Assembly (NCBI GenBank): GCA_044892525.1
Contig: CM097886.1
Location: 161,138,001-161,202,000 of the forward strand
Origin: Schmidtea polychroa
Lineage: Eukaryota
Direction: 5' to 3'
DNA: 64,000 bases
A program made the position numbers and the translations under genes. Under the pieces are notes generated by a model, which made no database searches, was not told the DNA's origin, and was given only the letters and a program-made list of their open reading frames with translations. This document shows positions 1,193 through 64,000 of this stretch, piece after piece; position 1 is the first letter of the stretch; each line of letters starts with the position of its first letter.

Positions 1193-4100
1193 TTGTTTAT
1201 TTTATATTTATCAGGTTCTTTATATCCTCGATGCTGTGTATCTGGAATCGGGCATAACTCCAAATGCCATGATCGAATGACATCATATTACGGTCGTAGA
1301 TTCAACGGAATCGAATACTTTATATGTCCCAAATGCAAGACTATTTTTTGCAAGACTACTTCTACTTTTAAAGAGTTTTATAGTGAGCACTCTACACATT
1401 TAAATCAGTTTTCATCAAATAAGAAGGAAATGTTTAGAGAAATCTTTAATAGGCAATCTGTTAATATAATTAATAATAATAATAATAATAAAAGGCATGC
1501 AGCAAATAAAAATAATGTTGTCGCCACTACAAGTATTAAAAAAGATAGGCAAAATCTTAAAATAATTAATAATAACAATAAAAGGTCTGCAGAAAATAAA
1601 AATGAAGTTGTCGCAACTAAAATTATTAAAAAGAGATTATAATTATAAGTGACGATGAAACCGATGTTGCTGATTCCCCTTGTATTCCTATTAATCAAGT
1701 AGGAGGGTCTTTATATGTAGGCGATGATCCTATTATAACTATCGAGTTTCAAGGTGCTCGAAAAAATCTAAGGTTTGATGTTTCTAAGCATCAATTGATT
1801 CAAATATCTTTAACCGATAAAATTAGCCACCGTCTAGCATTAGAAATAATGGGGTCTGTAAAAATACAATTTACAGATTTTATCCAATTTGAAAAAGATG
1901 GATAAATTAGGGACAACTATTTTTCAAATACAGCACTTGTTTTCTCGGATGATTTTTTGATTAAAGGGTCACAAAAATTAAAAGAGAAAATAGATAAATT
2001 TACACATCTCGGTAGTGGGTGGCGAATAAATAAAATTAAAGAAATTGGGTTTATCTTGACAAAATATTATCTAATTAATCGCTTATCTGGCCATTCATAT
2101 ATACCAACACCAACATCGTTGTATAATAAAACTGCAATAGTGAACATTAAGAATACAATATGTGCTTTATATATAGTGTACTTGCTGTATTAAAACATGA
2201 TCAGATTAGAAATCATTGGAATAGAGTGAGCAAGTATACCGGTTTCTTGAATGAGATTAATTATGACCCTATAACTGATTGTCCCATGACACTGTGTAAT
2301 ATATCGAAATTTGAGAAGAAAAATTGTCATCTAAACCTTGCTATAAGTGTATTTTCATACAAACATGTAATTATTATAGACAATGACAGTAATAATGATG
2401 ATGCTTATGTGCCACATCATCCTCACCTAGATTTTATACATAGATCCAAAGTTATTGATGGCATACCTGTGTACTTGCTACTTCTTGAAGATGGTGATAA
2501 CTATCATTATACGGCCATTATCAACTTGCAACGTTTAATAAATTGTCATTCTAATATAGATTGCTCGATAAGAATAAGAGTTAATTAGTGCCCTCATTGC
2601 CTTAATGGATTTCGATTACAACATGCTTTTGATAGACATGTTGCATTGTGTAGTAAAAATCAGATAGGAACGACTCTTTACACTCTTCCTACAAATAAAA
2701 ACTTGCAATTCGAAAATTTTGCAAAAACTATTCCCCACCATTTGTAATTTATGCCGATTTCGAAACGGTTTTACCTAAAGATGTAATACATCATCAAATA
2801 CATTATCCAATATCCGCAGGTCTTTTACTAATTAACAACTACACAAATACAAAATCATATTATAATTTCATTGGTACTGATTGTGTTTTGAAATTTTTGT
2901 GTAAGATTGAAGAGATTGCTGACACAATAGTTATCCCTTATTATGAAATTCATGGCAAAACACCTCTAAAAACTATGACTTGGGCCGAAAATCGCGCTTT
3001 CAGTTTTTCTACAACCTGTTACCTTTGTAAAAAATCTATTATTCGCAAAGTTCGAGATCATGATCATTTCTCTGGCAAGTATCTTGGTTCTACTTGTAGT
3101 AAATGTAATATTTCTCGGCGAATTCAAAAACAGCTTCCTGTAGTTTTTCATAACTTGAAGGGGTATGACCTTCATCATATTTTGAAATTTGGTCTTGATA
3201 ATTTTCCATCGTGGGAGTTGAATATTATTCCTACTAGCACTGAAAAATTTATATCATTAATCTCTTATATCAAAAAATTGCCTGTTCGTTTTATCGATAG
3301 TATGCAATTTGTTAATTTTCTTTGGCAAAGGCTGTAAAAACTCTGTCGGATCTTCCTTTGACGTCATCTGCTTTTGAAGGTTCTATTATGACTTGTAAAG
3401 GCATTTTCCCTTATAATTTTGCAACTTCATTAGAAATTCTAGAATCTAATCTTGAATTGCCACCAATTTGGTATGGTGTTACGGCAGATGAATATGCTAC
3501 TGCCCAACAAATTTGGACTCGGCAGAATTGTAATAATCTTTTGGACTACATGTTAACTTATCTTAAATTAGATGTATTTCTCTTGGTTGATTATTTCGAA
3601 CAATTCCGCGCAAAGGCCATTGCTTACAATGGTCTTGAACCTCTGAATTTCTATGGCATTCCTGGTATGTCATGGGCATCAGCACTCATGACGTTCCAAG
3701 AGCCGATCGAACTTTTGCAGGATATGGAAATGTTCAATTTTTATGAGGGAGGAATACGAGGAGGTTTGACATTTGTTAACAAGCATCATGTTTCAACTTC
3801 GGAGAATACACAATTATTATATATTGATATTAATAATTTGTATGGTTGGGCTCTTAGCCAAAACTTCCGTATGCCGATTTTACTTGGGTTTATAATAATC
3901 TTGAATCTATATTGCATGAGTGTATAAATTCGGATATTGAAACACTTTCATATGGTTACACTATGGAAGTCGATATAAATATCCCTAATCTGTTGCATGG
4001 TTATTTGAACGACTTCCCTCTTGCTCCGGAAAGATGTGTCCATCCGGTTCTAAAGTTGAAAATTTGATACTCACGCATTGGACCAAGAAGAACCATGTTC

Positions 4101-5014
4101 TTCATTGGAGATTTTTTTTAAACTTTATATTGAATTGGGAGCAATCGTTGTAACTGTTCATCGTGCCATTAAATTTAAACAAGCATCAATTTTTAAAACA
4201 TATATTGACAAAAACACACAATTACGAGCGACTTCTACCAGTGAGCTTTATAGAGATTTATTTAAGCTTTATAATAATAGCCTGTATGGTAAATCAGTCG
4301 AAAATTTAAAAAAGCGCATGAAACTCCGCCGAAAAGCTTATTACATATGCATCAAAACCTCAATTTAGAAAATCTATCACAATTTCTCGTGATTTAGTTG
4401 CGGCACATTTAAATAAGGATCAAATCTGTTTAGATAGACCCAGCTATATTGAACAGTCTGTACTAGATCTGTCTAAACTGCGCATGTATCAACTTCAATA
4501 TATTGAATTGGACAAGTATAGGTGCGAGTTTAATTGTAAAATAAATATTGTTGCCGGAGATACAGACTCTTTCTTTTTAGAAATTAAAGACTGTAAATTA
4601 GATGTATTATTACCGGCAATGATTAGAGATAATCTGCTTGACACATCCAATTATGACCCTTCACATCCGTTATTCTCTAGAAAACTCGATTCTGTTATCG
4701 GCAAGTTTAAGGATGAGAGTAAGTGACTTGGAAATAGTGAATGGGTTTTCTTGAGACCAAAATGTTATAGTCTTTTAGGCACTAAGACTAGTATGAAAGC
4801 AAAAGGAGTTAATTTAGTGGGAACTGAAATTAATCATCAGTCATATGTCGATTGTTATAACTCTAACGAGATATTTTCAGTACCACAATCTAGGATAGGG
4901 TCGCGTAACCATCAACTTTACACATTTAAAAATATAAAAATTGCATTGTCAAACAATGATGATAAGCGATTATGGGTAGGGAAAATACTAGTCTTGCATT
5001 TGGGTATTATTTAG
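1193..5014 (+). pseudogene. Polinton/Maverick protein-primed family B DNA polymerase (pPolB), frameshifted
   Basis: Collinear ORF pieces with GSGW...SYIPTP...IVNIKN, ExoI IYADFETV (about 2745-2770), ExoII VFHNLKGYD, an endonuclease-VII-like CYLC...DHDH...CSKCN insert, motif A YIDINNLYG, motif B KLYNNSLYGK, motif C GDTDSF, and C-terminal LRPKCYS and DDKR. Manual translation of 1640-1956 links it to the 1193 ORF via a frameshift. Confidence 0.93.
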
Positions 5015-7599: not shown

Positions 7600-8860
7600 T
7601 TATTTAATCAATTGATTTTCAGATATCCAAGTTGGAGTTTCATAACCATGCCATTTAACATAGTATTGTTTATATTTTCCATCATTTTTGGTTTTTAAAA
7701 TCTTTTGAATTCTGAATATTGTAGGAGCAGGAATAATAACTTGGGGTTCTTGTTCATAGAATTTACCAGTGATTGGATTGTTTTCATGATCAGTTATCAC
7801 ATACATGACATGATTCTGTTTTGTATCGACTTTCAAAATTTGATATACTTCATCACTCCAATTATTATCAAAATCCTTGATGAATGGTGAAGATTTGATT
7901 TTACTAATTCTTACATGATCACTGTAAAGAATAAGAATAATTGATAAATTCCAAAAACTTTACTTAAGAAATTGTGGTACTATTTATAGTTCCCGGTGTG
8001 TCGACACCAACACAATCACCAATAGCTTTTGGGGAAATAATAATCAGTGACATAATTTTAGGACCCAGACAATCAAAAATAATAAATCACACATGCAGGC
8101 ATTACATAATATAGGGTAAAGGTTAAGGAAATCAAATATCCCATTATAATTACATCACAATCACCAACCTTGTATTTTGGTTTATCGATTTTTCTACCTT
8201 TGGTAGTTTATTATTAAAATCAACAGGTCTCTGACCTTTTAATCCTCTATGCGGTGAATGATTGTAACTGAAAATATTTTTTGGCAAAACATTTATCCAA
8301 GTTTTATTACCATGATATACATAATAATTTTTAATCATTCTCTTAAAGTTCGATTAAATTGTTCTACGTGAGCAGCTTTGAAATGAGAAAATACCGAGTA
8401 ATGACTTATTCCTTTGATAACTTCTTTAACTTTGCTGCTATAAAATTCTTTACCTAAACCAAATATTTAAAAATAAATTAATTAAATTTAATTACCTAAA
8501 TCGGTTTGTAAATTACGAGGTTGCCATCTGCAAACATTTCTTTAATCGCATCATCCATTTCATTTGCAGATTTAGTTTTTGTAGAAACAGCACGAGCATA
8601 TCTATTAAAAACATCAATACAAGTCAGAATATATTTGTACCATTTGTTGATTTTTGAATAAGGTATCATTTCCATCAAATCCATTTGCCATAAATCATTG
8701 ATTTCAAATGTTTTGTATGGTCTTGTTGGAAATCATTTCAATATTGGTTTATTTAAACTATACGCTAATTGATTAGATAACCATTTCTGAGTTTCTTTCT
8801 TTGAATTAAAATATAAAAATCTACAATATTTTTATTTGGTAATGAACTATTGATACCCAT
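7600..8860 (-). pseudogene. Polinton retroviral-like (RVE) integrase with C-terminal chromodomain
   Basis: WQMDLMEM, YILTCIDVFNRYA, LQTDLG-KEF, KAAHVEQFNRTL, YNHSPHRGL, KYKVGD|HVRIS, NWSDEVY, chromodomain YYVKWHGYETPTWISE. Contains stops and frameshifts and is split by the 7923-8159 insertion. Confidence 0.92.
7923..8159. mobile_element. Solo LTR (237 bp) inserted in the Polinton integrase
   Basis: Starts TGT, ends ACA, with 5-bp TSD atcac (7918-7922, 8160-8164). Removing it restores KVGDHVRIS. Confidence 0.72.
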
Positions 8861-8871
8861 TAAGAACTTAA

Positions 8872-9198
8872 TTATGTAATTGCACTAATTGCAGATAAAA
8901 CTATAGGAATTTATGCACCCAAGAACCCACCTTTTTGTTTATATATTATATTTCTCGTTAGACGCCGAATTTTTGTATCAACTAACGATAAAAGGGATCT
9001 TTTGTGTCCTTGTAATACTAATCTTTTAGCTTTAGTAATATTTACATTACCACGAACAACATTTATAATAACTTCAAGCAAATCATCGATAACAAATAAT
9101 GGAAAAGATTGTAAAATTGATATTCGTTTTGAATTTGGAGCCTTCATTAAAACATTAAAATATGATAAACTTCGTTCAAATTTCATTGTTACTACCAT
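8872..9198 (-). pseudogene. Small Polinton ORF with adenovirus pX-like C-terminal amphipathic segment
   Basis: Ends IIYKQKGGFLGA*IPIVLSAISAIT* (one TAA probably from TTA). Compare adenoviral pX RGGILPLLIPLIAAAIGA. Confidence 0.55.
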
Positions 9199-9226
9199 TA
9201 ATTAACGCGACAGATTGTTTATAATT

Positions 9227-9352
9227 TTATCCATTTCTTAGTTTGTTTCTTATCTTTCTTACTTTTCTTAATTTTCTTAGTGCGTTTTGTTTTCTTGTTT
9301 ATTTTTTGGAAACAATTAGAAGATTTTTAACAATTACTTTTTAAAATGTCAT
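9227..9352 (-). pseudogene. Degraded lysine-rich small ORF (possible DNA-binding core protein)
   Basis: NKKTKRTKKIKKSKKDIRNKLRNG* between ATPase and pX-like ORF. Needs one frameshift and one stop repair. Confidence 0.3.
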
Positions 9353-9374
9353 GATTAATTTAATTTTAATTGTT

Positions 9375-9975
9375 TTCAGTTTTGTTTATAAATTGTTACA
9401 CCATTTATATTAAAAATATAAGATCTAATACGCATATCATCAGGACATTGTTGCGTAAAAAATGAATACGCGTGGGGAATTTTGGTCGCATCTTGGAATG
9501 ATTCTATTAAAAATTTCCTATTATTAAAATAAGCTTGTCTTGCAAGAAAATCAATTATTTATTGATCTCAAGGATTTTTGAAAATAATCAAATATTGAAA
9601 ATTTAAATTACGTGTTCCATGACTTTCACCTTGATGAAAAAGATTTTGTGTTATGAAAATACCTGTAACACTGCAATGTCTACTGATTTTTGTAAATAAA
9701 TTAATAAATATTTTTCTTTATTTGCTTCCTGATACAAATCATCGATAATAATAATATCACCTTGAAGTAATCTGGATGACCAAATTTTATCAAATCCTTT
9801 AATTATTGTCATTTTTAATTTACAGAAACTATTTTGAGTTAATCCGTGCTCTTCATCTGCACCTCTATGCCAAAATATTTTATTAAATTTTGATTTAAAC
9901 ATGTTTGATTTTAATAAATTACATAGAAATAAAATTTTTTCACTTCCACTAGGTCCTATACTGCATCATTTCTTA
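9375..9975 (-). pseudogene. Polinton A32/FtsK-like genome packaging ATPase
   Basis: Degenerate Walker A IGPSGSEK (9959-9936, in frame with the 9902 ORF), Walker B IIIIDDL, then after a frameshift SRH...IFITQNLF...FKNP*D. Start and end approximate. Confidence 0.85.
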
Positions 9976-13405: not shown

Positions 13406-13551
13406 TATTAATAAAATCTTTACCATGTTTATTTAAGTATTTATTTCAAATAAAAATTCTTTGAAACAAATTATTAATTTTTTCAATTTTCACCACTGAT
13501 TTTTTTTTAATTGACATTGTATTTATTAAAAAAACTTGAATATGATCAAAA

Positions 13552-13625
13552 TCACTTGAAAAAGGCAGTGCCGAAAATTCGTCAATATCAAAGACATCGA
13601 TATCTTTACTGACTTATAGTCAAGC
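13552..13625 (+). repeat. Dispersed repeat carrying a hammerhead-like motif (copy 1)
   Basis: tcac TTGAAAA a ggc agt gcc GAAA at TC gtca. Homologous to 31895-32020 and to both arms of 54586-54784. Confidence 0.6.
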
Positions 13626-16589: not shown

Positions 16590-18001
16590 TTATTATTATT
16601 TCTAACTATAACTGTTTGTATTATTTTATTTATTTCTATTAATTATCACAGAAATTTAGAATTAACACTATAATAATATTATTAATGTTATTATTTATTA
16701 TTATTACTAATTCCTGACCGTAATATGTTATTATTTTCTCTGTTAATTATTAATTTCTGTTAATTTATTATGCTATTAATTATTAATTATTATCAATGCT
16801 ATTATTTATTCTTAGTATTTTACAGTGATTAGGGTGAGTTTCGTAGTTGAGTGTGCTGTTAAATTATAAGAAGTATTTTTGAGAAAGAATACGAATGGGA
16901 AGGTGTCCAGGAAGAGGGATTTCTCTTTCTGAAAAAAATATTTTTAGAGTTTTAATTGTAAATAACTTTTTTGCACAAAATATTATATATTTATTATTAT
17001 ATTATATGTTATTATTATATTATATACAGTATAAAATAGAGTAAATTTTAAATTTCAGTGAGATGGGAAGTTTTTATAAAGTAAATCCCTCGTCTGCATT
17101 ACTTACATTCATTATATACATTCATTATTTTCTTAATTCAATTTACTGTTAATATTGCATTTTACATTTCATATACATATTGTTAGCCGCAACAACGTCG
17201 AATTCATGTTCAATCTCCATAATTAATAAATTAACCAAATAAAATTACTAAATTTATTTTATTCACAAAACTGCTCTTTTTTGTAATATTCAAACAATCT
17301 GTTCGAAGCATTTTTATTATTTTAATTTATTTTTATATTTTAAACTTACTTTAATTTATTAATTTAAATATTTATATAAAAATTTATGTAATCTGATAAA
17401 TACAATTTAAATGTTTATTAACAATATTCAGTTTTAACTTAAACGTGAATTTTACCATTTCACATATTATTATACATTTCATTAAAAAGAAAAACAACTT
17501 TTAATTAAAATTTACACGTTAAATGTTAAAACAAATGTCAAAAAGTTCATCATCCTTTTACAAGTTTTTGATGCTTTTTGTTCGAAAAGTTTATTGATGC
17601 ACATGTCTGAAATTTTCTCTAATAATTGAATAAAAATTTACATTTTTCTTTAAATTATTTGAAAAATTAAATTTTTCTAATTTAAAATCAAGTCAATATT
17701 ACCAATTTATTATTTTATTATAAGAACCTTTTGTTCTTCTTCTTATTTCTTTTTAAAATCTAATAAAGTCCAATGCAAAATGATGTATAATATTTTAATT
17801 ACGAATTTAAAAATTAAATTATTCCAACAATATTTATTTCAACCCTTATCAGAAAATTATTGAGTAAATGAAAAAATATTTTCGACCAATCAAAAATAAT
17901 TACTCTTGCCTATAATTGGATGAAAATAATTAAAAAAAAACATTTTGTAAAAGAATTTATGAATATTTATCAAAAAGAATATAAATTCTACAACTTCTGA
18001 A

Positions 18002-18709
18002 ATGCAAAATTTCAATGAGCTTGAATATAATTCCAAATGTCTATACAATAAAGAAACTGCTTCAAATTCTACAAATGTTTCAAATAAAAAAATTCTTAAA
18101 AAAAGATTAAAAAAGAAAAATAAATTAAAAAATCTTAAAAAGTCAAATGAGAAACGGGAAAATTTCGACGAACAGATAAAATTGAAAAAATCCAATTCTA
18201 AATCAAATATTGGGTTATATTTCCTACTGAAACATGAATTAATTGCATTTTGTCAAAATACCACAATGCGAGGAATACCAAGAATTATTAAAGCACAAAG
18301 TCGAAATCTTCGAATTCTTTGGATTACATTTGTAGTCATTTTATTCATCGGTCTACTCTTGTCTATGTTATTTTTGACAAAACAATACCTTGAATATAAC
18401 GTTATTCATCCACCAGTTATTTTACCTGACCAAGAGCCACCATTCCCATCAATAAGTCTTTGTAATTTACGACCATTATCTAGATTTGGACTGGAGTTTC
18501 TTAAGAAAAACAATTGGAGAAATCCACGTGAATTCGGAAACAATCTCAATGTATATGTTGCAAACAAATGGTATTACAATCAAAGCACTAAACACTATTA
18601 TACGCAATTAACAACTGCAATTTCAATGAACGGGTATCTAGAAAGCGTTCCATTTGATGTGCTAGATAAGCTTGGGCATTCCCTTGATGAGCTGGTCATT
18701 CATTGTTTA
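18002..18709 (+). CDS. First coding exon of a DEG/ENaC (amiloride-sensitive) channel
   Basis: FCQNTTMRGIPRI pre-M1 motif, hydrophobic M1 (LWITFVVILFIGLLLSMLFL), FPSISLCNLRP post-M1 motif, and LDELVIHC followed by a phase-0 GTAAGT donor at 18710. No disablements over 236 codons. Confidence 0.9.
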
Positions 18710-18799
18710 GTAAGTTTCTTTCAATATGAGAAGGATAAATATCATAAACTGCTAAATAAAAACATTATTCCAACACCAATCAACTAATAAATATGTGAG

Positions 18800-26426: not shown

Positions 26427-28045
26427 TATTTACTATTTTATACTATTTTATATTTCTGGAATCGGATCGAAATTGTTTATAATGCCTATTATGGACAATT
26501 AGCAAATAATTGACATATAAATAATTTTAATTCAATTTTATTTTGACATTTTTTAACTGACAGTTTTTCCAAAATTAAAAAAAATATGAAAATCTTTTTT
26601 CTCATTGATTTTCAACATTTATTTGTTCTGTTTTCAGCTTTTCTATCTTTTCTTTTGATAGTCAAATTTTAAATTTATTCTTGAGTAGTTTACTACATTA
26701 TAATGATTTAAACAAATGTAATTATTAATTGAAAATTATTTTATGATAATTCTCAAATGATTCGTTATTAAAAGGATTTTAACATAATTTATTACAGTTA
26801 AAAGAATATTATAAATGAAAACTCTAAATTAGGAACCATTAAAAATATATTATTTATCTTTATCTATATTTCTACCTTAGACTTTATGATAAAAATCTTT
26901 TACATTTCAATTAAAATTTAATAATTCATTTTTCAATGAATTATTGCGAATTTTAATTAAAAAGGAAATATAAAATGATCGAATATTTTACAATAGAAAG
27001 TTAATTTTTCATTGAGATTTATTTGTTTGAAATAATTTTTTATATATTTATTATATTTGTGATTTATTAATTATAAAATTATTATCAAATAACTAATTGT
27101 TTTATTTTATGAATATTTCATTAAAAAATGTATTAGAAAACTTTATTAGTACTTTTTTCTTGAATGCTGTCTAGTATAATTCTATAAAAGTCTGGCTGCA
27201 AAATAATGAAATAATTGATTATAATGAAATAATTGTTTATAATTAAAATTATTAGCTTTACAATTTGAAAATAATTAAGAAAATTTATAGTAAAAACATA
27301 ATTTATGGGGATTTTGATAAANNNNNNNNNNNNNNNNNNNNNNNNNNNNNNNNNNNNNNNNNNNNNNNNNNNNNNNNNNNNNNNNNNNNNNNNNNNNNNN
27401 NNNNNNNNNNNNNNNNNNNNNNNNNNNNNNNNNNNNNNNNNNNNNNNNNNNNNNNNNNNNNNNNNNNNNNNNNNNNNNNNNNNNNNNNNNNNNNNNNNNT
27501 TGGTAGCAGCATTTATTATTTAAAACAATAAAATGATAATTTAAGCCTTTCGCTGCAAATAATGTATTTAATGAAAAAATTTTGACTATAAGATAGTACT
27601 TGTCAATCTCCAGGAATTTTGCAATGTTCTTCCCCAAAATACCTTTCAATCTTTCTTTTATTTCCTTTCTCTTAATTCTCATTGGTTGTAAATATAATGA
27701 ATTTTTTATTAAAAACTTTTAAAATTTTACTGAGAATTAAAATTAAAAATAATAAAATAAAATAAATACCATTTAAAATTTCAAAATGACACAAACTAAA
27801 AATTTTTAAATTTTTTTATACAGATTCTATAATTAGCTTCTAGAAGCCTAATAAAATATTTCAAAATATTCTAAATAAAGCCTCCAATAACCACTTATAT
27901 ATGCTATTTAAATATTTCAATAAATGTGTCAATTTTGATTTTCAAATCCAATTTTTTAAAATGTTTCTATATTTTTCTAATTATTACTTTTTAATTTATT
28001 ATAATTTCTTTTAATTTCTTTATTTATTGCCAGTTATTCTCAAAG

Positions 28046-29515
28046 TCAATGACAACAGATCAAATTCATGACTTCATTGATTTCTTCTTTAGTGTTGATC
28101 TTTGGCTGTCTGTTTATGATGAGAATTGCTTCTTTGAATCTGACATTTTTTTGTATGTTTCCATTAGCTATGATTTCTATTGAAATATTTTTTCTTTCCT
28201 CTGTTGGCTGACACTGCCGGAGATGTCTGGCCAACGAGGATGTTCCACCAGGATCTAGATGTTCTTTAACTCTTTGGTGCAAGGTCCTGAGTGTACTTCC
28301 AGTGTAGATTTCATTACATACATTGTACGTGATGCAATAGACGATGTTTTTTCTAAAGCACATATCTTTCGGTGTCTGACAGTTTTTCATTGTGCAATTG
28401 TTTTCTCTATTTATGTTGCTTGCCAGAGCCCTTCTCAATGTCCAAGATTTATGTGTTATCCGAATTGGAAGAGCGGTAAGTTTGAGTTCTTTCAGGATCT
28501 TGTAGTCGAGTATGTCACTAATGAATTCAGATAGAAATATTTCTGATTCTTTTGTGTTAATTCCCTAGATCTTCTTGGGGTAGAATTCATTCTTTCAATG
28601 TCCTCACCTTGATATCCGTTTCGGTGTAGGATTTTATTGAAATTTGATTGTTCTTTAAAGTTTTCGTTTTTTTCCGTGCATCGATTGGCTATTCTTTGTT
28701 TCTCGTTTCTTATGACATGTACTTTATGTAAATATGGAAGCGCTGATCTTTGTGCATAAATATTTCTTTGTGAGCTTGTTTTCTGTAGAACCCGTGTGTT
28801 GGAGTATTTGCTTCTATTTTAATTCTCAAATCCAATAAATTGAGGGATCCATCTTCTTCCGGATATTCGATTTCGAACTTAATATTTCGGTGAGCCGCAT
28901 TGAACGTATGAAATATTTCCTCCGCTTCTTTTCTGCTTTTGGTCGTGATGAAGATATTATCTACATATCTTGCGTAGAAACCGATGGGTTGTATGGTCCT
29001 CAGTGCCTGTCGTTCGAGGTTATCCATAAAGATGATTGCTAGCAGTCCTGATATGCTAGAACCCATAGGTAGACCTTTAACTTGTTTATAGATATTTTGC
29101 TCAAAAGGTAAGTAGTTTGGTGATATTCTTGATATTCATTTCCTTTATTAACAAGTTGCAACTTATGTTCAATAATCTTTGATCTTTTCCAATCGTTAAA
29201 ATTATCATATTCCAAATTTCGATTAGTCATTGTTCATAAATTGCAATTCACTTTTAAACTTTAATATTAGAAAACCTTTTAAACTCAAAACTTTTATTTA
29301 AACAAAATACAAAATTTTAAAAATTCACCTTTTTAAACAAATTAGAGCAATTAACGATTCTGAAAAAACAAATCAATTCAATCCAATTTAAATAAAAACA
29401 CAAGTTACAAGTTCCAAACAATACATTGTTCGCGACAGTGTGCGCACACATAAAACCATCACACTCCCAAACCAACGTGCACACAGACGCGACAAATCAC
29501 ATCAGGATTAACCAT
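28046..29515 (-). mobile_element. Penelope-like element 1 (RT C-half + GIY-YIG endonuclease), internally deleted, with 5' leader
   Basis: IYKQVKGLPMGSSISG, YARYVDNIFI, LNLLDL, and GIY-YIG VYCIT...YTGSTLRTLHQRVKEH...RFKEAILI...PKIN. Short N-terminal ORF start at 29230. GC hairpin at 29430-29492. Confidence 0.9.
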
Positions 29516-31710: not shown

Positions 31711-31894
31711 ATGGTTTTTATATTATTAATATTCGGTGTAGAATAATGAAGTATTTTCACAGTAAATCAACAATGGCTGATTGCTGATGAAATGTTCAAA
31801 CATACAAAGGGCGAATATAAAAATAAAATGATTAACATTTTAATGTTTTCAATTTGTATGGGATAATGAAAAATTTATTTAAATTTTAATGAAT

Positions 31895-32020
31895 TTCACT
31901 TGAAAAATTCAGTGCCGAAAATTCGTGAGTATCAACAAACATCGATATATTACTGATTTATAGTCTTCAAACTCTCTTTTCAATTCAATGGATAAAATAA
32001 TCAGTGGTGAAATTGGAAGA
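31895..32020 (+). repeat. Hammerhead-like dispersed repeat (copy 2)
   Basis: ttcac TTGAAAA a ttc agt gcc GAAA at TC gtgag, then the tail atcaacaaacatcgatatattactgatttatagtcttcaaactctc...atcagtggtga shared with 54692-54810. Confidence 0.65.
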
Positions 32021-54585: not shown

Positions 54586-54784
54586 ATTTATTAAAAAGAG
54601 AGCTTGAAGACTATAAATCAGTAATATATCGATGTTTTTTGATACTCACGAATTTTCGGCACTAGCTTTTTCAAGTGAAATTCAACTGAAATTCACTTGG
54701 AAAGGCAGTGCCGAAAATTCGTGAGTATCAACAAACATCGATATATTACTGATTTATAGTCTTCAAACTCTCTTTTTAATAAAT
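54586..54784. repeat. Long inverted repeat made of two head-to-head hammerhead-like repeat copies
   Basis: Arms 54586-54679 and 54692-54784 are near-identical reverse complements with a 12-nt spacer. Confidence 0.9.
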
Positions 54785-55794
54785 TCAATGGAAAAAATAA
54801 TCAGTGGTGANNNNNNNNNNNNNNNNNNNNNNNNNNNNNNNNNNNNNNNNNNNNNNNNNNNNNNNNNNNNNNNNNNNNNNNNNNNNNNNNNNNNNNNNNN
54901 NNNNNNNNNNNNNNNNNNNNNNNNNNNNNNNNNNNNNNNNNNNNNNNNNNNNNNNNNNGAATTTAATAGACATTTCTTATCTTTTATAAATTAAAAGAAA
55001 AATTTAAAATTCAGTTTTAATTAAAAAGAGCTACTGGAATAATTAAATCACTCGAAAGCATTAGCATGAAAAATGTTTCAACTATTTGTCTAATAAGTGA
55101 GTAAGATTGTTTTGTTTTCAATTAATAATTAATCAACATTGACATCGTGAAATTGCGCTCATTCAAAATTCAGCCAACTAGAAGTGATGAATTTTATTCT
55201 ACAAAATGAGAAAACATCTCATTTAGTTAGAAATGTTTAATTAATTTTTTTTTCATAAGGAAATCAGAATTCTCCAAAATAATTGTCAAAATAATTATCA
55301 ATTTTTAATATTATTGGCTAATCTATTTTTATTTTTTTGTCATTTTTTTAAAGTTACATTTTTCATAAAAAGTTTATTAGTGATTTATTTGGACTCCCAA
55401 ATAAATCTTAATATTTACCTTTTTAATGAGCCTCCATAAATTAAAAACTATTTTGATAAAAAAAAAGAATAAGCAAACAAATAAATTTATTTTTAATACC
55501 TGTATAATATTTATTATTTTTAAGATAATATTAAAATTTTATTTTGTTTAATGGCAAGAAATAAATAAAGTTTTAACGGTAGCAGTAATTTTTGGCTATT
55601 TTTTCTGAAGTATTTATATTAAAAGTTCCTTAATAATATTTTGACGTTTTCTAAATGTGAGTTTAATTTAAAAATTCATTCTTTAAACGAAATAATATTG
55701 GAAAAAAAGTCAATTATTTAAATAGGTCACAATGTTCATTTTTAAAGTCAATATTTTTGGATAACAACAATTTGTCCATGTCTATAATCGAAGA

Positions 55795-56078
55795 TACCGC
55801 CATCATTGAACATCCTAATGGTCGCCTTGGTGCCGATTGGGAATGGAATTGAGCCATATCCGCCATATCCTGTCGCAAGGCATTTCATATCCATGTTTAT
55901 ATCTAAATCGAGCTGCTTCCATTTGTGCACGACATACTTGAGATCGACAATCAGGGATCATACCAATCATAACGCCTCCAGTACTTTCAGTAATATTAAA
56001 CAATCTTGTAGCTGAACTCTTCTCAATCATTTTATCTGGAACCTGTCTTCGTGTAGCTACACATAAATTTGATCTCAT
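55795..56078 (-). pseudogene. PSMA6: Proteasome alpha-type-6 (alpha1) internal fragment, intronless
   Basis: CVATRRQVPDKMIEKSSATRLFNITESTGGVMIGMIPDCRSQVCRAQMEAARFRYKHGYEMPC, then after a frameshift MADMAQFHSQSAPRRPLGCSMM. Compare [63 protein letters not shown]...RPLGCCM. Confidence 0.88.
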
Positions 56079-56105
56079 ATTATTCCTTTCTGAACACAAA
56101 ACAAT

Positions 56106-56384
56106 ATCGATTCGGCCATTTTGATCTTGAGCACATTTCAACAAATTTGTTTGATCCATATTCAATTCACCAGGTACAGATTGAACTAATTGCCGGTCTC
56201 GAGATGATGTGATTAGAGAAAATTCATTACCCAGAATTTTAATAGATTTGACAGATCTGATAACATCGTCTTTACAAATAGTTTCTCTTTCCATTTTGCT
56301 GCGGGTTCCATTCAACCTTGCCACTAAATCATCGAGATCCATCAATCCCCCGTTATATTTAGATGTTGCCATTGTAATTTCCAA
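56106..56384 (-). pseudogene. SNF8: ESCRT-II subunit SNF8/Vps22/EAP30 internal fragment, intronless
   Basis: MATSKYNGGLMDLDDL...KDDVIRSVKSIKILGNEF...LVQSVPGELNMDQTNLL...QNG versus SNF8 NGGLITLEEL...QDDLIRAIKKLKALG...LIQSVPAELNMDHTVVL...KNG. Confidence 0.9.
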
Positions 56385-56517
56385 AAAAACCCAATCGAAA
56401 TAAAACTCAATAAACAAAGAAGATTTCCATTGCCATCAAATACAATCACACAAAACCTAATAAAACTCTCTAAATTAAAATTACAACTCACCCAACCAAC
56501 AAAATTGAAAAATACCT

Positions 56518-56675
56518 CTTGCTCGCGCCTGTGTGCGCACACAGCCAAAACAAAGAAAAGAAAAGCGCACACAGACGCGAGATCAACTAAAAACCCAACA
56601 TAAAAAATTACATTGCTCGCGTCTGTGTGCGCACACAAATTCGTCACACAATACAACGCGCACACAGACGCGCAT
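56518..56675. promoter_or_regulatory. Two GC-rich inverted-repeat units upstream of the chimera (putative PLE-type leader/promoter)
   Basis: Arms 56522-56538/56565-56581 (16/17) and 56618-56632/56658-56672 (15/15). Each unit contains the palindrome tgtgtgcgcacaca. 24/27 match to 29424-29450. Function is inferred only. Confidence 0.45.
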
Positions 56676-56701
56676 TGAGCTAATAATTCACCACACAATG
56701 T

Positions 56702-56896
56702 ATGTCAAATGATGTAAAAATGTTGGTATGAGTTATGATCAAAAGTTCGTACGTATTTGTGAGTTTAATTTAAAAATTCATTCTTTAAACGAAATAATAT
56801 TGGAAAAAAAGTCAATTATTTAAATAGGTCGCAATGTATGTCAAATGATGTAAAAATGTTGGTATGAGTAATGATCAAAAGTTTGTACGTATTTGT
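56702..56896. repeat. Local tandem duplication, 136-bp period
   Basis: 56702-56760 matches 56838-56896, and 55656-55735 matches 56758-56837 (few substitutions). Confidence 0.92.
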
Positions 56897-57699: not shown

Positions 57700-58010
57700 G
57701 CGGTACGTAGCTCAGATTCTTGGTTTGCTGTTTTGATTCTTGTTGGATCATTCATAATTCAATTTTATTGAAAGAGGATCTTTTATTAAAGGCTTAAAAG
57801 ATTCTTTTGCCTTTTCAATTAATATTCCAATAGAATAGATCCCGCTTAAAATTTCTTTGACTTTTGGTAAATCTTTACATTAATAAATGGCTGATTTCAG
57901 ACAACTTGACAATCGAGTTAAAATTACTGCCGGTGGACTACCAATACTATCGAATTTCATGATGTCTGTCTTGTTCTCAATGGTTATGACATTAACATAT
58001 GGATATGACT
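57700..58010 (-). pseudogene. Degraded hAT (CGGBP1-like) transposase fragment
   Basis: SPPAVILTRLSSCLKSAIY*CKDLPKVKEIL...GILIEKAKESF resembles the PP.PxITRWGTWL.AA.YY motif. A copy lies on + at about 63783-64000. Confidence 0.45.
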
Positions 58011-58173
58011 TTATTTATATGACTTTATGACTTTATTTAGACTGTGCTCTTTTTATTCTCTTCATACTATAAATAAAAGGTTGATTAGGAAATTAAATTG
58101 ATAATAACATATTTTAAAATTCAAGAAATCAAAAAAGAACAAATATAAAAATGTCCCAAATTATAGTATAAAT

Positions 58174-59080
58174 CAAGGGTGGGCACGCATGGGTTCAATA
58201 AGAGCCATTTTCCGAAAATTTATTTTTTACAGAGCCACCATAGTAAAGTACATATTTTTTTTTATTTCATTAATTTGATTAAAGAGACTTAAACGCTATT
58301 AAAAAAAACAAAATAATTATTTCAAACATTAAGTAACAAACATAAAAATCCATTAATAAAAAGTAATAAAATTTCTTGAATTAACGAAGACTTTTGGTCA
58401 AATCTTTGAAATTTGGTGTATACTTTGTTAAAGCTGTTCGCAGCAATTCTGTAAGATGCTGATTGGTCAACTGTGAACGATATTTCGACTTTACGAACTT
58501 CATTGTGGAGTACAAAGATTCACAACAATATTTTGTACCAAAAATTGAAATTAGACGGCAAGCAGCTTGTTTTAAGTGTGGATATTTTGCCTCTGGTACG
58601 AGTTTCCAAAATTCAACTGTAGAAGTAGATTTATGGTGCATTTGCAAAGCCTGGTCCTCTTTCATATCTAATAACTCCAATTCCCCAACCGCTTTTTTAA
58701 GAAATATTACTTCAGAAATTGGAAATCCATCTTCAATAATATCACAAATAAATGGGTTCACAAAAAATGCAAATGTAGATTTATAACTTTTCAAATCTTC
58801 AAACCTACATTTGAAATCCACTTGCAATTCTTCCAATTTTTCACTGTATTCGTTTACTTTTTCTTCTGTAATATCAATTATATTAGCTTTTATTCGTGGA
58901 AAATGATTAAATATATTATGAAAATACAATTGCAACAAAAAATTTTTTCTCAAAACATTTAGTCAAAAATTTCAAAATAAAAAATCGAATTCGATTATCA
59001 AGAATTCAATTATCAATGAGCCGCAGTTTACTCAACGAAGAGCCGCATGCGGCTCTAAGAGCTGCATTGGCCCACCGTTG
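58174..59080 (-). mobile_element. hAT (Buster/Charlie, GTF2IRD2-like) deletion derivative with intact C-terminal dimerisation region
   Basis: Perfect 8-bp TSD gtataaat (58166-58173, 59081-59088) and imperfect ca.g/cggtgggc TIRs. ORF 58381-58953 has FVNPF...VEFWKLVPEAKYPHLK...FGTKYCCESLYSTMKFVKSKYRSQLT. The empty site is present at about 63615-63622. Confidence 0.95.
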
Positions 59081-62790: not shown

Positions 62791-63635
62791 CTCCATCTAT
62801 CCCAAATTATAATATACAGTTTCGATTTGTTGTTGCCACAAATAATGGTATAAAAATAATGATTTTTGATTTTTTATTGTAGCTAATAAGTAAATAACTA
62901 GCTAATTGGATCTGCAGGGCTCGTTTTTCGGTTTCGTTAAAAATAAAAGATGTAAAATATTTTAACTTCAATAAAATCCAAAATGTAAGTTCTAGTACAA
63001 AATGTTTTATGTGGAAATCATATTACGTGAAGAAAATGGTGTAGGAACCTCGAATCATGATAAAATAATTAGACTACAATTTCAAATATTTTCTGAAAAG
63101 CATTAATAAGTTGAAGACGAACTGCTAAAATTGCAAATAATTTAAGTAAAGATTTTCGGTTATTCTTTTTCTTTTTATTGTATTTTTTGTCATGGTGTTC
63201 TTATAGTGTATAGATTAATAATTTGGTGTGTATAATTAAATGTAATTAGTAATATAGTGTTTATATTAGTAATATAGTGTGTAGATTAGTTTTGGCCGTA
63301 AAATAATATTACAAATTATGGATTTCATATTTAAATTTTATTGATTAGTATTCATAATATTTTGTCCTACCGTATTAAATGCGTCTTGACTGCATATAAT
63401 AGATACTGGTAAACGACCCTTTGCTATCATGGTTGATTCTATACAAGTTTGTAATTTTAAAAATACATTCTCAAGTTTATCTTTGTTTAATTCGTTGAAT
63501 GAGTTCTGAATACATTCAATTAATTCATCAATAGTTTTCGGAGAACCTTGATGTTGTAGTGATTGGATAGGATTGAAAAAAACCAAGATTTAAAACATTA
63601 AGGTACGGACTATAATTTATACTATAATTTGGGAC
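62791..63635 (-). mobile_element. DD39D (plant-mariner/Stowaway-associated type) transposon deletion derivative
   Basis: On -: SPYLNVLNLGFF-N-IQSLQ...PKTIDELIECIQNSFNELNKDKLENVFLKLQTCIE (family motif SPDLNVLDLGFF). TA|ctccatctatcccaaattata end at 62791 and partial inverse tataatttgggac at 63623-63635. Confidence 0.7.
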
Positions 63636-64000
63636 ATTTTTATATTTGTTCTTTTTTGATTTCTTGAATTTTAAAATATGTTATTATCAATTTAATTTCC
63701 TAATCAACCTTTTATTTATAGTATGAAGAGAATAAAAAGAGCACAGTCTAAATAAAGTCATAAAGTCATATAAATAAAGTCATATCCATATGTTAATGTC
63801 ATAACCATTGAGAACAAGACAGACATCATGAAATTCGATAGTATTGGTAGTCCACCGGCAGTAATTTTAACTCGATTGTCAAGTTGTCTGAAATCAGCCA
63901 TTTATTAATGTAAAGATTTACCAAAAGTCAAAGAAATTTTAAGCGGGATCTATTCTATTGGAATATTAATTGAAAAGGCAAAAGAATCTTTTAAGCCTTT
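63471..64000. repeat. Inverted duplicate of 57788-59232 lacking the hAT insertion
   Basis: The reverse complement matches 57788-58173 plus 59089-59232 almost perfectly, with a single copy of the 8-bp target. Confidence 0.95.

Follow-up and report, generated by a model that had tools for sequence, protein, structure and literature searches.

An SNF8-PSMA6 chimera in the Schmidtea polychroa genome lies in a solo LTR of a BEL/Pao retrotransposon whose full-length copies place ubiquitin before Gag

Analysis of a 64,000-nucleotide stretch of the Schmidtea polychroa genome (assembly GCA_044892525.1, contig CM097886.1, positions 161,138,001 to 161,202,000 of the forward strand; the whole stretch is called the window below) had revealed a short element in which pieces of two host genes, SNF8 and PSMA6, are joined in one open reading frame. 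The preliminary description had placed this element at 55736..56693 between the copies of an 8-bp target site duplication (TSD), had assigned no known ends to it and had explained it as a vehicle derived from a Penelope-like element (PLE). We asked what kind of element carries the fusion and how the host pieces came to lie within it. Comparison with the other copies in the genome indicated that a BEL/Pao retrotransposon has left a solo LTR at 55733-56693, an identification that is near certain. The element and its surroundings are as follows.

55656..56896, plus strand: 136-bp tandem duplication, the insertion target; the empty site lies in the second unit, at 56830-56837
55728..55732, plus strand: 5-bp TSD CACAA, beside the LTR 3' end
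55733..56693, minus strand: solo LTR of 961 bp, TG...CA, with ends as in the full elements that have a primer site and a purine tract
55733..55754, minus strand: LTR tail; the window copy is without about 18 nt that carry AATAAA in relatives
56519..56672, minus strand: two related hairpin units (56617-56672 and 56519-56581) in the LTR head, a clan-wide motif with a putative U3 promoter role
56694..56698, plus strand: 5-bp TSD CACAA, beside the LTR 5' end

Forty scored relatives with 91-98% identity over most of the LTR length were obtained from the same genome (the 2105 first-look candidates of this search are not a copy number), and many near-full LTR copies were paired about 4.1 kb apart. 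Among 29 relatives, 13 were solo LTRs with a perfect 5-bp TSD and 15 were 5' or 3' LTRs of longer elements, the one left over being assigned to neither class; a 5-bp TSD was present in all 13 resolved solo relatives and in the window copy. The 8-mer CACAATGT does exist at 55728-55735 and 56694-56701 as had been reported, but the true TSD is 5 bp long; the TGT at 55733-55735 belongs to the LTR end, and the element begins at 55733 rather than at 55736. An 8-bp TSD of the hAT type was rejected on account of the 5-bp TSD of the solo relatives. The empty site next door was confirmed as CGCAATGT, with one mismatch, in the neighbouring unit of the 136-bp duplication, and neither terminal inverted repeats (TIRs) nor a poly(A) tail were seen, in agreement with the preliminary description; the ends, on the contrary, are the TG...CA ends of an LTR, and in full copies a primer site comes after them or a purine tract before them. 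A DNA transposon of the Pack type (hAT, MULE) was also rejected, since TIRs are lacking, the TSD is 5 bp and not 8-9 bp long, and the PSMA6 intron is absent from the captured piece. The window copy is 28 nt shorter than its relatives, a 10-nt loss shifting the frame and an 18-nt loss removing AATAAA. It is a decayed solo LTR, immobile by itself, which is probably the product of recombination between two LTRs or the remnant of such a copy.

The hairpins of the LTR head fold significantly (z -5.9, reached by 0 of 200 shuffles) and their units are common to sister LTR families. Minimal hammerheads can escape detection by Rfam; within the window no Rfam family, hammerheads included, was matched at the gathering score. 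The hairpins had been described as shared with the leader of a PLE (PLE-1) of the same window. The likeness to 29416-29490 is real (59/76, E 2e-12), but the sequence taken for a leader belongs to a sister LTR family, of which it is the head. All 14 other copies of this PLE lack it and continue into the PLE frame, and its identification as a PLE leader was rejected.

29163..29514, minus strand: initial 352 bp of an LTR from a sister family, abutting a PLE that is truncated at its 5' end; the remainder of the LTR lies outside the window

The truncated PLE at 27500-29159 has reverse transcriptase (RT) and GIY-YIG domains. The sister family is about 570 bp long and older, its copies being 69-89% alike; the copy at locus L060 has the same purine tract in front, one near match to a TSD was seen for the family, and the copy at 29163-29514 contains a small frame that matches no Pfam family. 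The last codons of the chimera, in which a resemblance to the start of the PLE-1 frame had been seen, are PSMA6 (MDKLLLSK, host EMDKPLLFK). A non-LTR vehicle derived from a Penelope element and flanked by an 8-bp TSD would account for the repeated 8-mer and for the hairpin likeness, both of which exist; set against the TG...CA ends, the 5-bp TSD, the primer site, the purine tract, the BEL/Pao domains, the absence of the head from the 14 PLE copies and the lack of an Rfam match in the window at the gathering score, its probability is negligible. PLE RT and GIY-YIG domains were absent from the full copies of the element.

The full elements have direct terminal repeats of the form TG...CA, a primer site after the 5' LTR, which we take to be a match to the initiator Met tRNA, and a purine tract before the 3' LTR. 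The LTRs of a pair are 97.2-100% identical, and 99-100% identical in young complete elements. Among 40 full-element rows, 25 carry an exact 5-bp TSD and two a TSD with one mismatch, the others being boundary-calling failures or tandems (11 rows) or rows without an LTR pair (two). One LTR pair read in detail encloses ubiquitin and a BEL/Pao capsid domain. In the complete element L106 a frame of 2161 aa begins in the 5' LTR and contains, in order, ubiquitin, DUF1759, RVT_1, Peptidase_A17, an integrase zinc finger and DUF5641. The frame that runs from the LTR to ubiquitin in young complete elements translates the primer site itself as HGSRAWF. In gag-only copies with the SNF8-PSMA6 LTR the frame has 1143 aa. 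The SNF8-PSMA6 LTRs also flank the pol-bearing elements L126-L130, and some pairs enclose a Peptidase_A17 match; L126-L129 show 97-99% aligned identity to L106, and L127 has the same 222-aa leader, 98% identical across LTR positions 290-942. In full-length copies the chimera forms the beginning of the ubiquitin-Gag(-Pol) reading frame of the element itself, a point absent from the preliminary description. Three loci (L036, L037 and L141) are tandem arrays or duplicated blocks of a 4-5 kb gag-only element, with one TSD common to L033, L036 and L037. A second Gag lineage (L122, L151, L156, L181 and L202) has a tandem pair of ubiquitin units, of which the first is near canonical (LRLRGG) and the second diverged.

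The intronless, in-frame fusion of SNF8 and PSMA6 on the minus strand, 166 codons from MATSK to YEMPC, was confirmed. It has the following parts.

55755..56060, minus strand: captured PSMA6 piece, exon 2 and exon 3 joined at about 55892/55891; a 10-nt deletion near 55864 shifts the frame
55815..56372, minus strand: open frame, 185 codons long in the window copy; 8 of the 12 solo copies examined have 222 codons and no stop before the LTR end
56061..56084, minus strand: 24-nt linker (NNMRSNLC), a relic of older cargo that is still present in L178-type LTRs
56085..56381, minus strand: captured SNF8 piece, host codons about 105-203; the internal ATG at 56372-56370 opens the frame

Pfam identified EAP30 (E 3.6e-9) and Proteasome (E 6.6e-11) in the chimera, whose frame stops after 185 codons in the window copy; the best solved-structure matches of a sister copy were proteasome alpha type-6 and SNF8, and the nearest named proteins are from flatworms. 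The proteasome identity of the second piece was upheld, while its in-frame extent, given before as about 95 codons, is only about 66 codons because of the 10-nt deletion. The two pieces move as a unit, as had been proposed, the 29-nt joint between them having 286 exact matches in the genome and its reversed control none.

The SNF8 piece is identical to the host gene (locus L091) at 291 of 303 nt (96%). The host gene is a single-exon frame of 244 codons, so that intron loss provides no test of RNA-level capture for SNF8, and of the comparison with the parental genes that had been suggested only the PSMA6 half is informative. The PSMA6 piece of the LTR lacks the 43-nt intron 2 of the host gene, exon 2 joining exon 3 precisely, and the PSMA6 piece at least must have been captured from spliced mRNA. 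The host PSMA6 gene has three introns. Cargo of other LTRs shows the same trait: the PSMA6 cargo of a sister family (L082) crosses two introns, and a coatomer-gamma-like cargo joins seven exons over six host introns, one of which is 2.7 kb long. The 5' part of the PSMA6 piece is 95% identical to the host and its 3' third (55755-55891) 73%; the latter probably stems from an earlier capture that a later one has overwritten in part. PSMA6 was probably in place in the LTR before the SNF8 piece was added, as suggested by the linker, a relic of L178-type older cargo, and by the 6-nt microhomology GAAAAG shared by SNF8 and the older LTR at the SNF8 3' joint. Capture by template switching, as put forward earlier, fits this microhomology, which was read at the SNF8 3' joint only and from which the chimera differs by one base. 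At L081 (1444-2244) and L086 pieces of three genes, PSMA6, a myotubularin-like gene and ClpP, form a mosaic in one frame.

The generality of the in-frame leader was assessed in a census of the first 100 of 351 exact matches to the LTR end plus primer site, chosen without regard to cargo. The frame that enters the primer site was open for at least 50 codons in 78 of these loci and for at least 100 codons in 70, against 3/100 and 0/100 open for at least 50 codons in the other two frames, the one scoring 0 being closed by the LTR end itself. The 78 open leaders, segmental duplicates included, fell into 41 clusters, and the cargo varied across the census (phosphatase, Rab, CCT, coatomer, RING, Hsp70). 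Pfam analysis of 24 leaders identified pieces of dual-specificity phosphatase, Ras, LIM, TCP-1, adaptin, RING, Hsp70, cofilin, ClpP, myotubularin and proteasome proteins; no Pfam family was found for eight of the 24, nor for the leaders of L106, L110 and L065. The 22 elements that have no long open leader count against the mechanism proposed below.

In 88/100 loci ubiquitin occurs no more than 1.5 kb from the primer site. Of 77 motif matches, 68 retain the Gly-Gly, and the first ubiquitin end is in the frame of the primer site in 54 of the 77. Among 76 leaders that begin with Met, 34 run without a stop to a motif-matched end, a few of these matches being capsid and not ubiquitin; a share this low would be expected if many inserted copies have decayed. 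The main-lineage ubiquitin ends in LRLCGG instead of LRLRGG, and its identity to the diverged unit of the sister lineage is 60%; these features count against cleavage. AATAAA was present 33-53 nt before the LTR end in 76/100 loci, compared with 3.5% of like windows elsewhere. Two ubiquitin units were counted in 25/100 loci and three in 3/100. A site resembling a splice donor follows the primer site in 58/100, ahead of an AT-rich stretch with a dip in RNA-like coverage (L136, about 2696-2860); it may suppress the poly(A) signal of the 5' LTR or yield spliced forms that bypass read-through.

The SNF8/PSMA6 joint was also found in three sets of contigs, as a loose end in X1 and within contigs of 525 and 545 nt in X2 and X3. 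They were treated as RNA-like because host introns are skipped (all three PSMA6 introns in X1 and X2, two in X3) and the flanks are uncovered; such contigs give no starts, ends or levels. X2 and X3 are labelled as another organism. Relative to the host PSMA6 exon they show 23 differences in 370 positions, yet relative to the LTR chimera only 4-6 in 451, at low depth (L136, L092); interspecies transfer, a hybrid or cross-contamination would each account for this pattern. A 58-nt GT..AG skip on L136 was rejected as a 5' UTR intron, the shorter form being present in 14 of the 15 genomic loci with its right side; it is a genomic variant of L136.

Database relatives were sought with Gag alone, ubiquitin being left out, and 29 proteins were obtained. 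In the three closest (P0126, P0127 and P0128; 34-37% identical) ubiquitin-GG or a remnant of it precedes Gag, and the Gly-Gly is kept in all three; the next four have no ubiquitin by Pfam. P0127 consists of a DnaJA-like piece (E 7e-5 to DNAJA1), GSRAWF, ubiquitin-GG and Gag-Pol, and P0128 of an HSP90 piece, ubiquitin-GG and Gag-Pol. The peptide GSRAWF, which corresponds to the primer site, suggests that the cargo piece of P0127 is likewise placed in the LTR.

These results bear on the possibility that the cargo is a U3 sequence, situated before the transcription start, and that no protein joins it to Gag, its continuity with the Gag frame descending from a few founders. Related copies are indeed not independent of each other. 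The open frame is nevertheless shared by leaders with unrelated cargo and different LTR tails and by the leader of a relative only 36% identical, and, as weaker evidence, coverage by the RNA-like contigs extends over the cargo but only a small part of the LTR head. We consider a U3 location very unlikely.

Ratios resembling omega were calculated from variants common to at least two copies, the element body being represented by 32 loci aligned to L106. They were 0.40 for ubiquitin, 0.18 for the capsid, 0.12 for PR-RT and 0.09 for the integrase (p 0.01 or less), and 0.84 for the linker after the primer site. Compared with the host genes the cargo gave 1.17 for SNF8 and 0.61 and 0.71 for PSMA6, none of them significant, in a small test of 130 distinct LTRs, segmental duplicates included, in which PSMA6 values of 0.6-0.7 are compatible with weak constraint. 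Amino-acid constraint is accordingly not clear in the cargo and is present in ubiquitin, Gag and Pol. Stop codons shared between cargo copies numbered one against 6.4 expected (p 0.012), and private ones three against 6.0. From these comparisons the open frame appears to matter more than the cargo residues.

The same data weigh on the idea that the cargo protein itself is useful, in that pieces of SNF8 (ESCRT-II), proteasome, Rab and chaperone proteins on Gag would steer particles or act as decoys, with ubiquitin as a tag for budding or sorting and not as a cut site. Many cargo genes do function in trafficking or in the turnover of proteins, pieces of PSMA6 are found repeatedly in different subfamilies (150 scored PF10584 matches) and ubiquitin is under constraint. 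The cargo domains, however, are partial, freely swapped, shortened or tandemly repeated, the SNF8 and PSMA6 pieces are without significant amino-acid constraint, and abundant housekeeping mRNAs would by chance be captured most often; a function of the cargo protein is improbable.

A mechanism that combines cargo in R, translation from a cargo AUG and release at ubiquitin is probable as a whole. Transcription would start upstream of the cargo, past the LTR head, and the cargo would lie within a long R region; AATAAA is 33-53 nt before the LTR end, so that U5 is likely short. Strong-stop DNA would then have to cross R before its obligatory jump and could, by the route that we infer, hop to a co-packaged mRNA, copy part of it and return at short matches, after which the newly captured piece would be copied into both LTRs. 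Translation likely begins at an AUG inside the cargo, in which case only captures in frame with Gag would keep spreading. Host deubiquitinases are predicted to cut the cargo off Gag at the Gly-Gly of ubiquitin; if ubiquitin releases Gag in this way, the amino acids of the cargo would be nearly free to drift or to be replaced.

Selection may instead act on the cargo as RNA, often-replaced host-like RNA ends aiding escape from piRNAs or yielding small RNAs against host genes, and the frame being kept only against RNA decay. Cargo turnover is fast on a near-constant Gag-Pol (97-99% among pol-bearing subfamilies with different LTRs) and 41 leader clusters occur among 78, as selection on RNA would predict, but frequent neutral template switching predicts turnover as well, and selection on RNA is compatible with release at ubiquitin. 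As the main explanation it is unlikely. A wider proposal, which we offer tentatively and hold to be doubtful in its full extent, is that of a BEL/Pao clade older than this genome in which the LTR would serve as a replaceable cargo bay, ubiquitin would be the cut site uncoupling Gag from captured host mRNA, in-frame captures would supply the start codon and fast cargo turnover would itself be favoured, for example through piRNA escape. Such a clade would shuffle exons continually and would spread promoter-bearing mosaics of host genes by the thousand, as solo LTRs.

Comparison with known systems indicated similarities to several of them. LTRs, a 5-bp TSD and a single Gag-Pol frame with DUF1759, RT, Peptidase_A17, integrase and DUF5641 are traits of BEL/Pao as presented in the main text of de la Chaux and Wagner (2011, PMC3118150), in which planarian families (Flow superfamily) are also reported. 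The clan differs from the elements described there in that captured host sequence within the LTR provides the start of its frame and in that ubiquitin precedes Gag; the word ubiquitin is absent from that main text. LTR-mediated retroposition, according to sections of Tan et al. (2016, PMC5131818), shares with the clan partial intronless mRNA pieces, short matches at the joints, multi-gene chimeras and further rounds of movement. The retrocopy described in those sections is internal and replaces part of the element's reading frames, whereas here the cargo is in both LTRs, Gag-Pol is kept, copies number in the hundreds and the cargo is in the Gag frame. Maize Bs1 likewise contains exonic pieces of several host genes in a chimeric LTR element; in the portions of PMC5131818 and PMC7264820 that deal with it, Bs1 has one to five copies, fixed joints and cargo flanked by the element, in contrast to the many cargo sets that turn over within the LTR here.

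The Ty1 Gag AUG lies in the LTR. Ty1 has a short 5' UTR, and its primer site has been altered by 'silent' changes, that is, within the Gag frame; unlike the clan, Ty1 as covered in sections of the same source (PMC5454406) has no host cargo and no ubiquitin. Cassandra TRIMs have host-derived sequence inside their LTRs, but this is 5S rRNA promoter sequence, a single, non-coding cargo of a non-autonomous element (10.1101/2023.07.14.548913, in part). Terminons of the Athena PLEs resemble the clan as retroelements that carry host genes, but sections of PMC6431247 describe them as telomeric, with a 3'-end hammerhead, no LTR and genes captured between neighbouring units. For the ubiquitin, cytopathic pestiviruses provide a working analogy: host hydrolases cut the polyprotein at a captured cellular ubiquitin and thereby release the protein that follows it (PMC8310069, relevant sections). 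Those are sporadic recombinants of an RNA virus with cleavage established by experiment, while here ubiquitin is a fixed feature of a retrotransposon clade and its cleavage is predicted. No description of the combined architecture was found in the literature covered, which consisted of main texts, largely of open-access papers.

When an LTR element captures a gene, the event is usually a rare accident that cripples the element; in this clan capture appears routine, takes place within the LTR and is incorporated into a protein on which active elements depend. The clan would constitute a large natural record of template switching with hundreds of dated events, is a likely second case of a captured ubiquitin used as a polyprotein cut site, and offers a direct way of testing whether a transposon gains protection from small RNAs through host-like sequence. 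On the practical side, the genome and transcriptome receive from these LTRs hundreds of housekeeping-gene fragments with 95% identity, which in flatworms can mislead the annotation of genes, the mapping of reads and the design of RNAi.

Inspection of the rest of the window revealed a small palindromic element at 54586-54784, with 84-nt arms that are 95% complementary and partial copies at 31890-31984 and 13545-13591, and a 386-nt perfect inverted repeat at 57788-58173 and 63615-64000, which reaches the window edge. A C-terminal piece of a hAT transposase (PF05699) is located at 58384-58962. Broken frames occur at 2151-4726 and 7600-9965 and are presumably pieces of the polymerase, integrase and ATPase of a Polinton. 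An exon of an amiloride-sensitive sodium channel gene (PF00858) was identified at 17963-18784.
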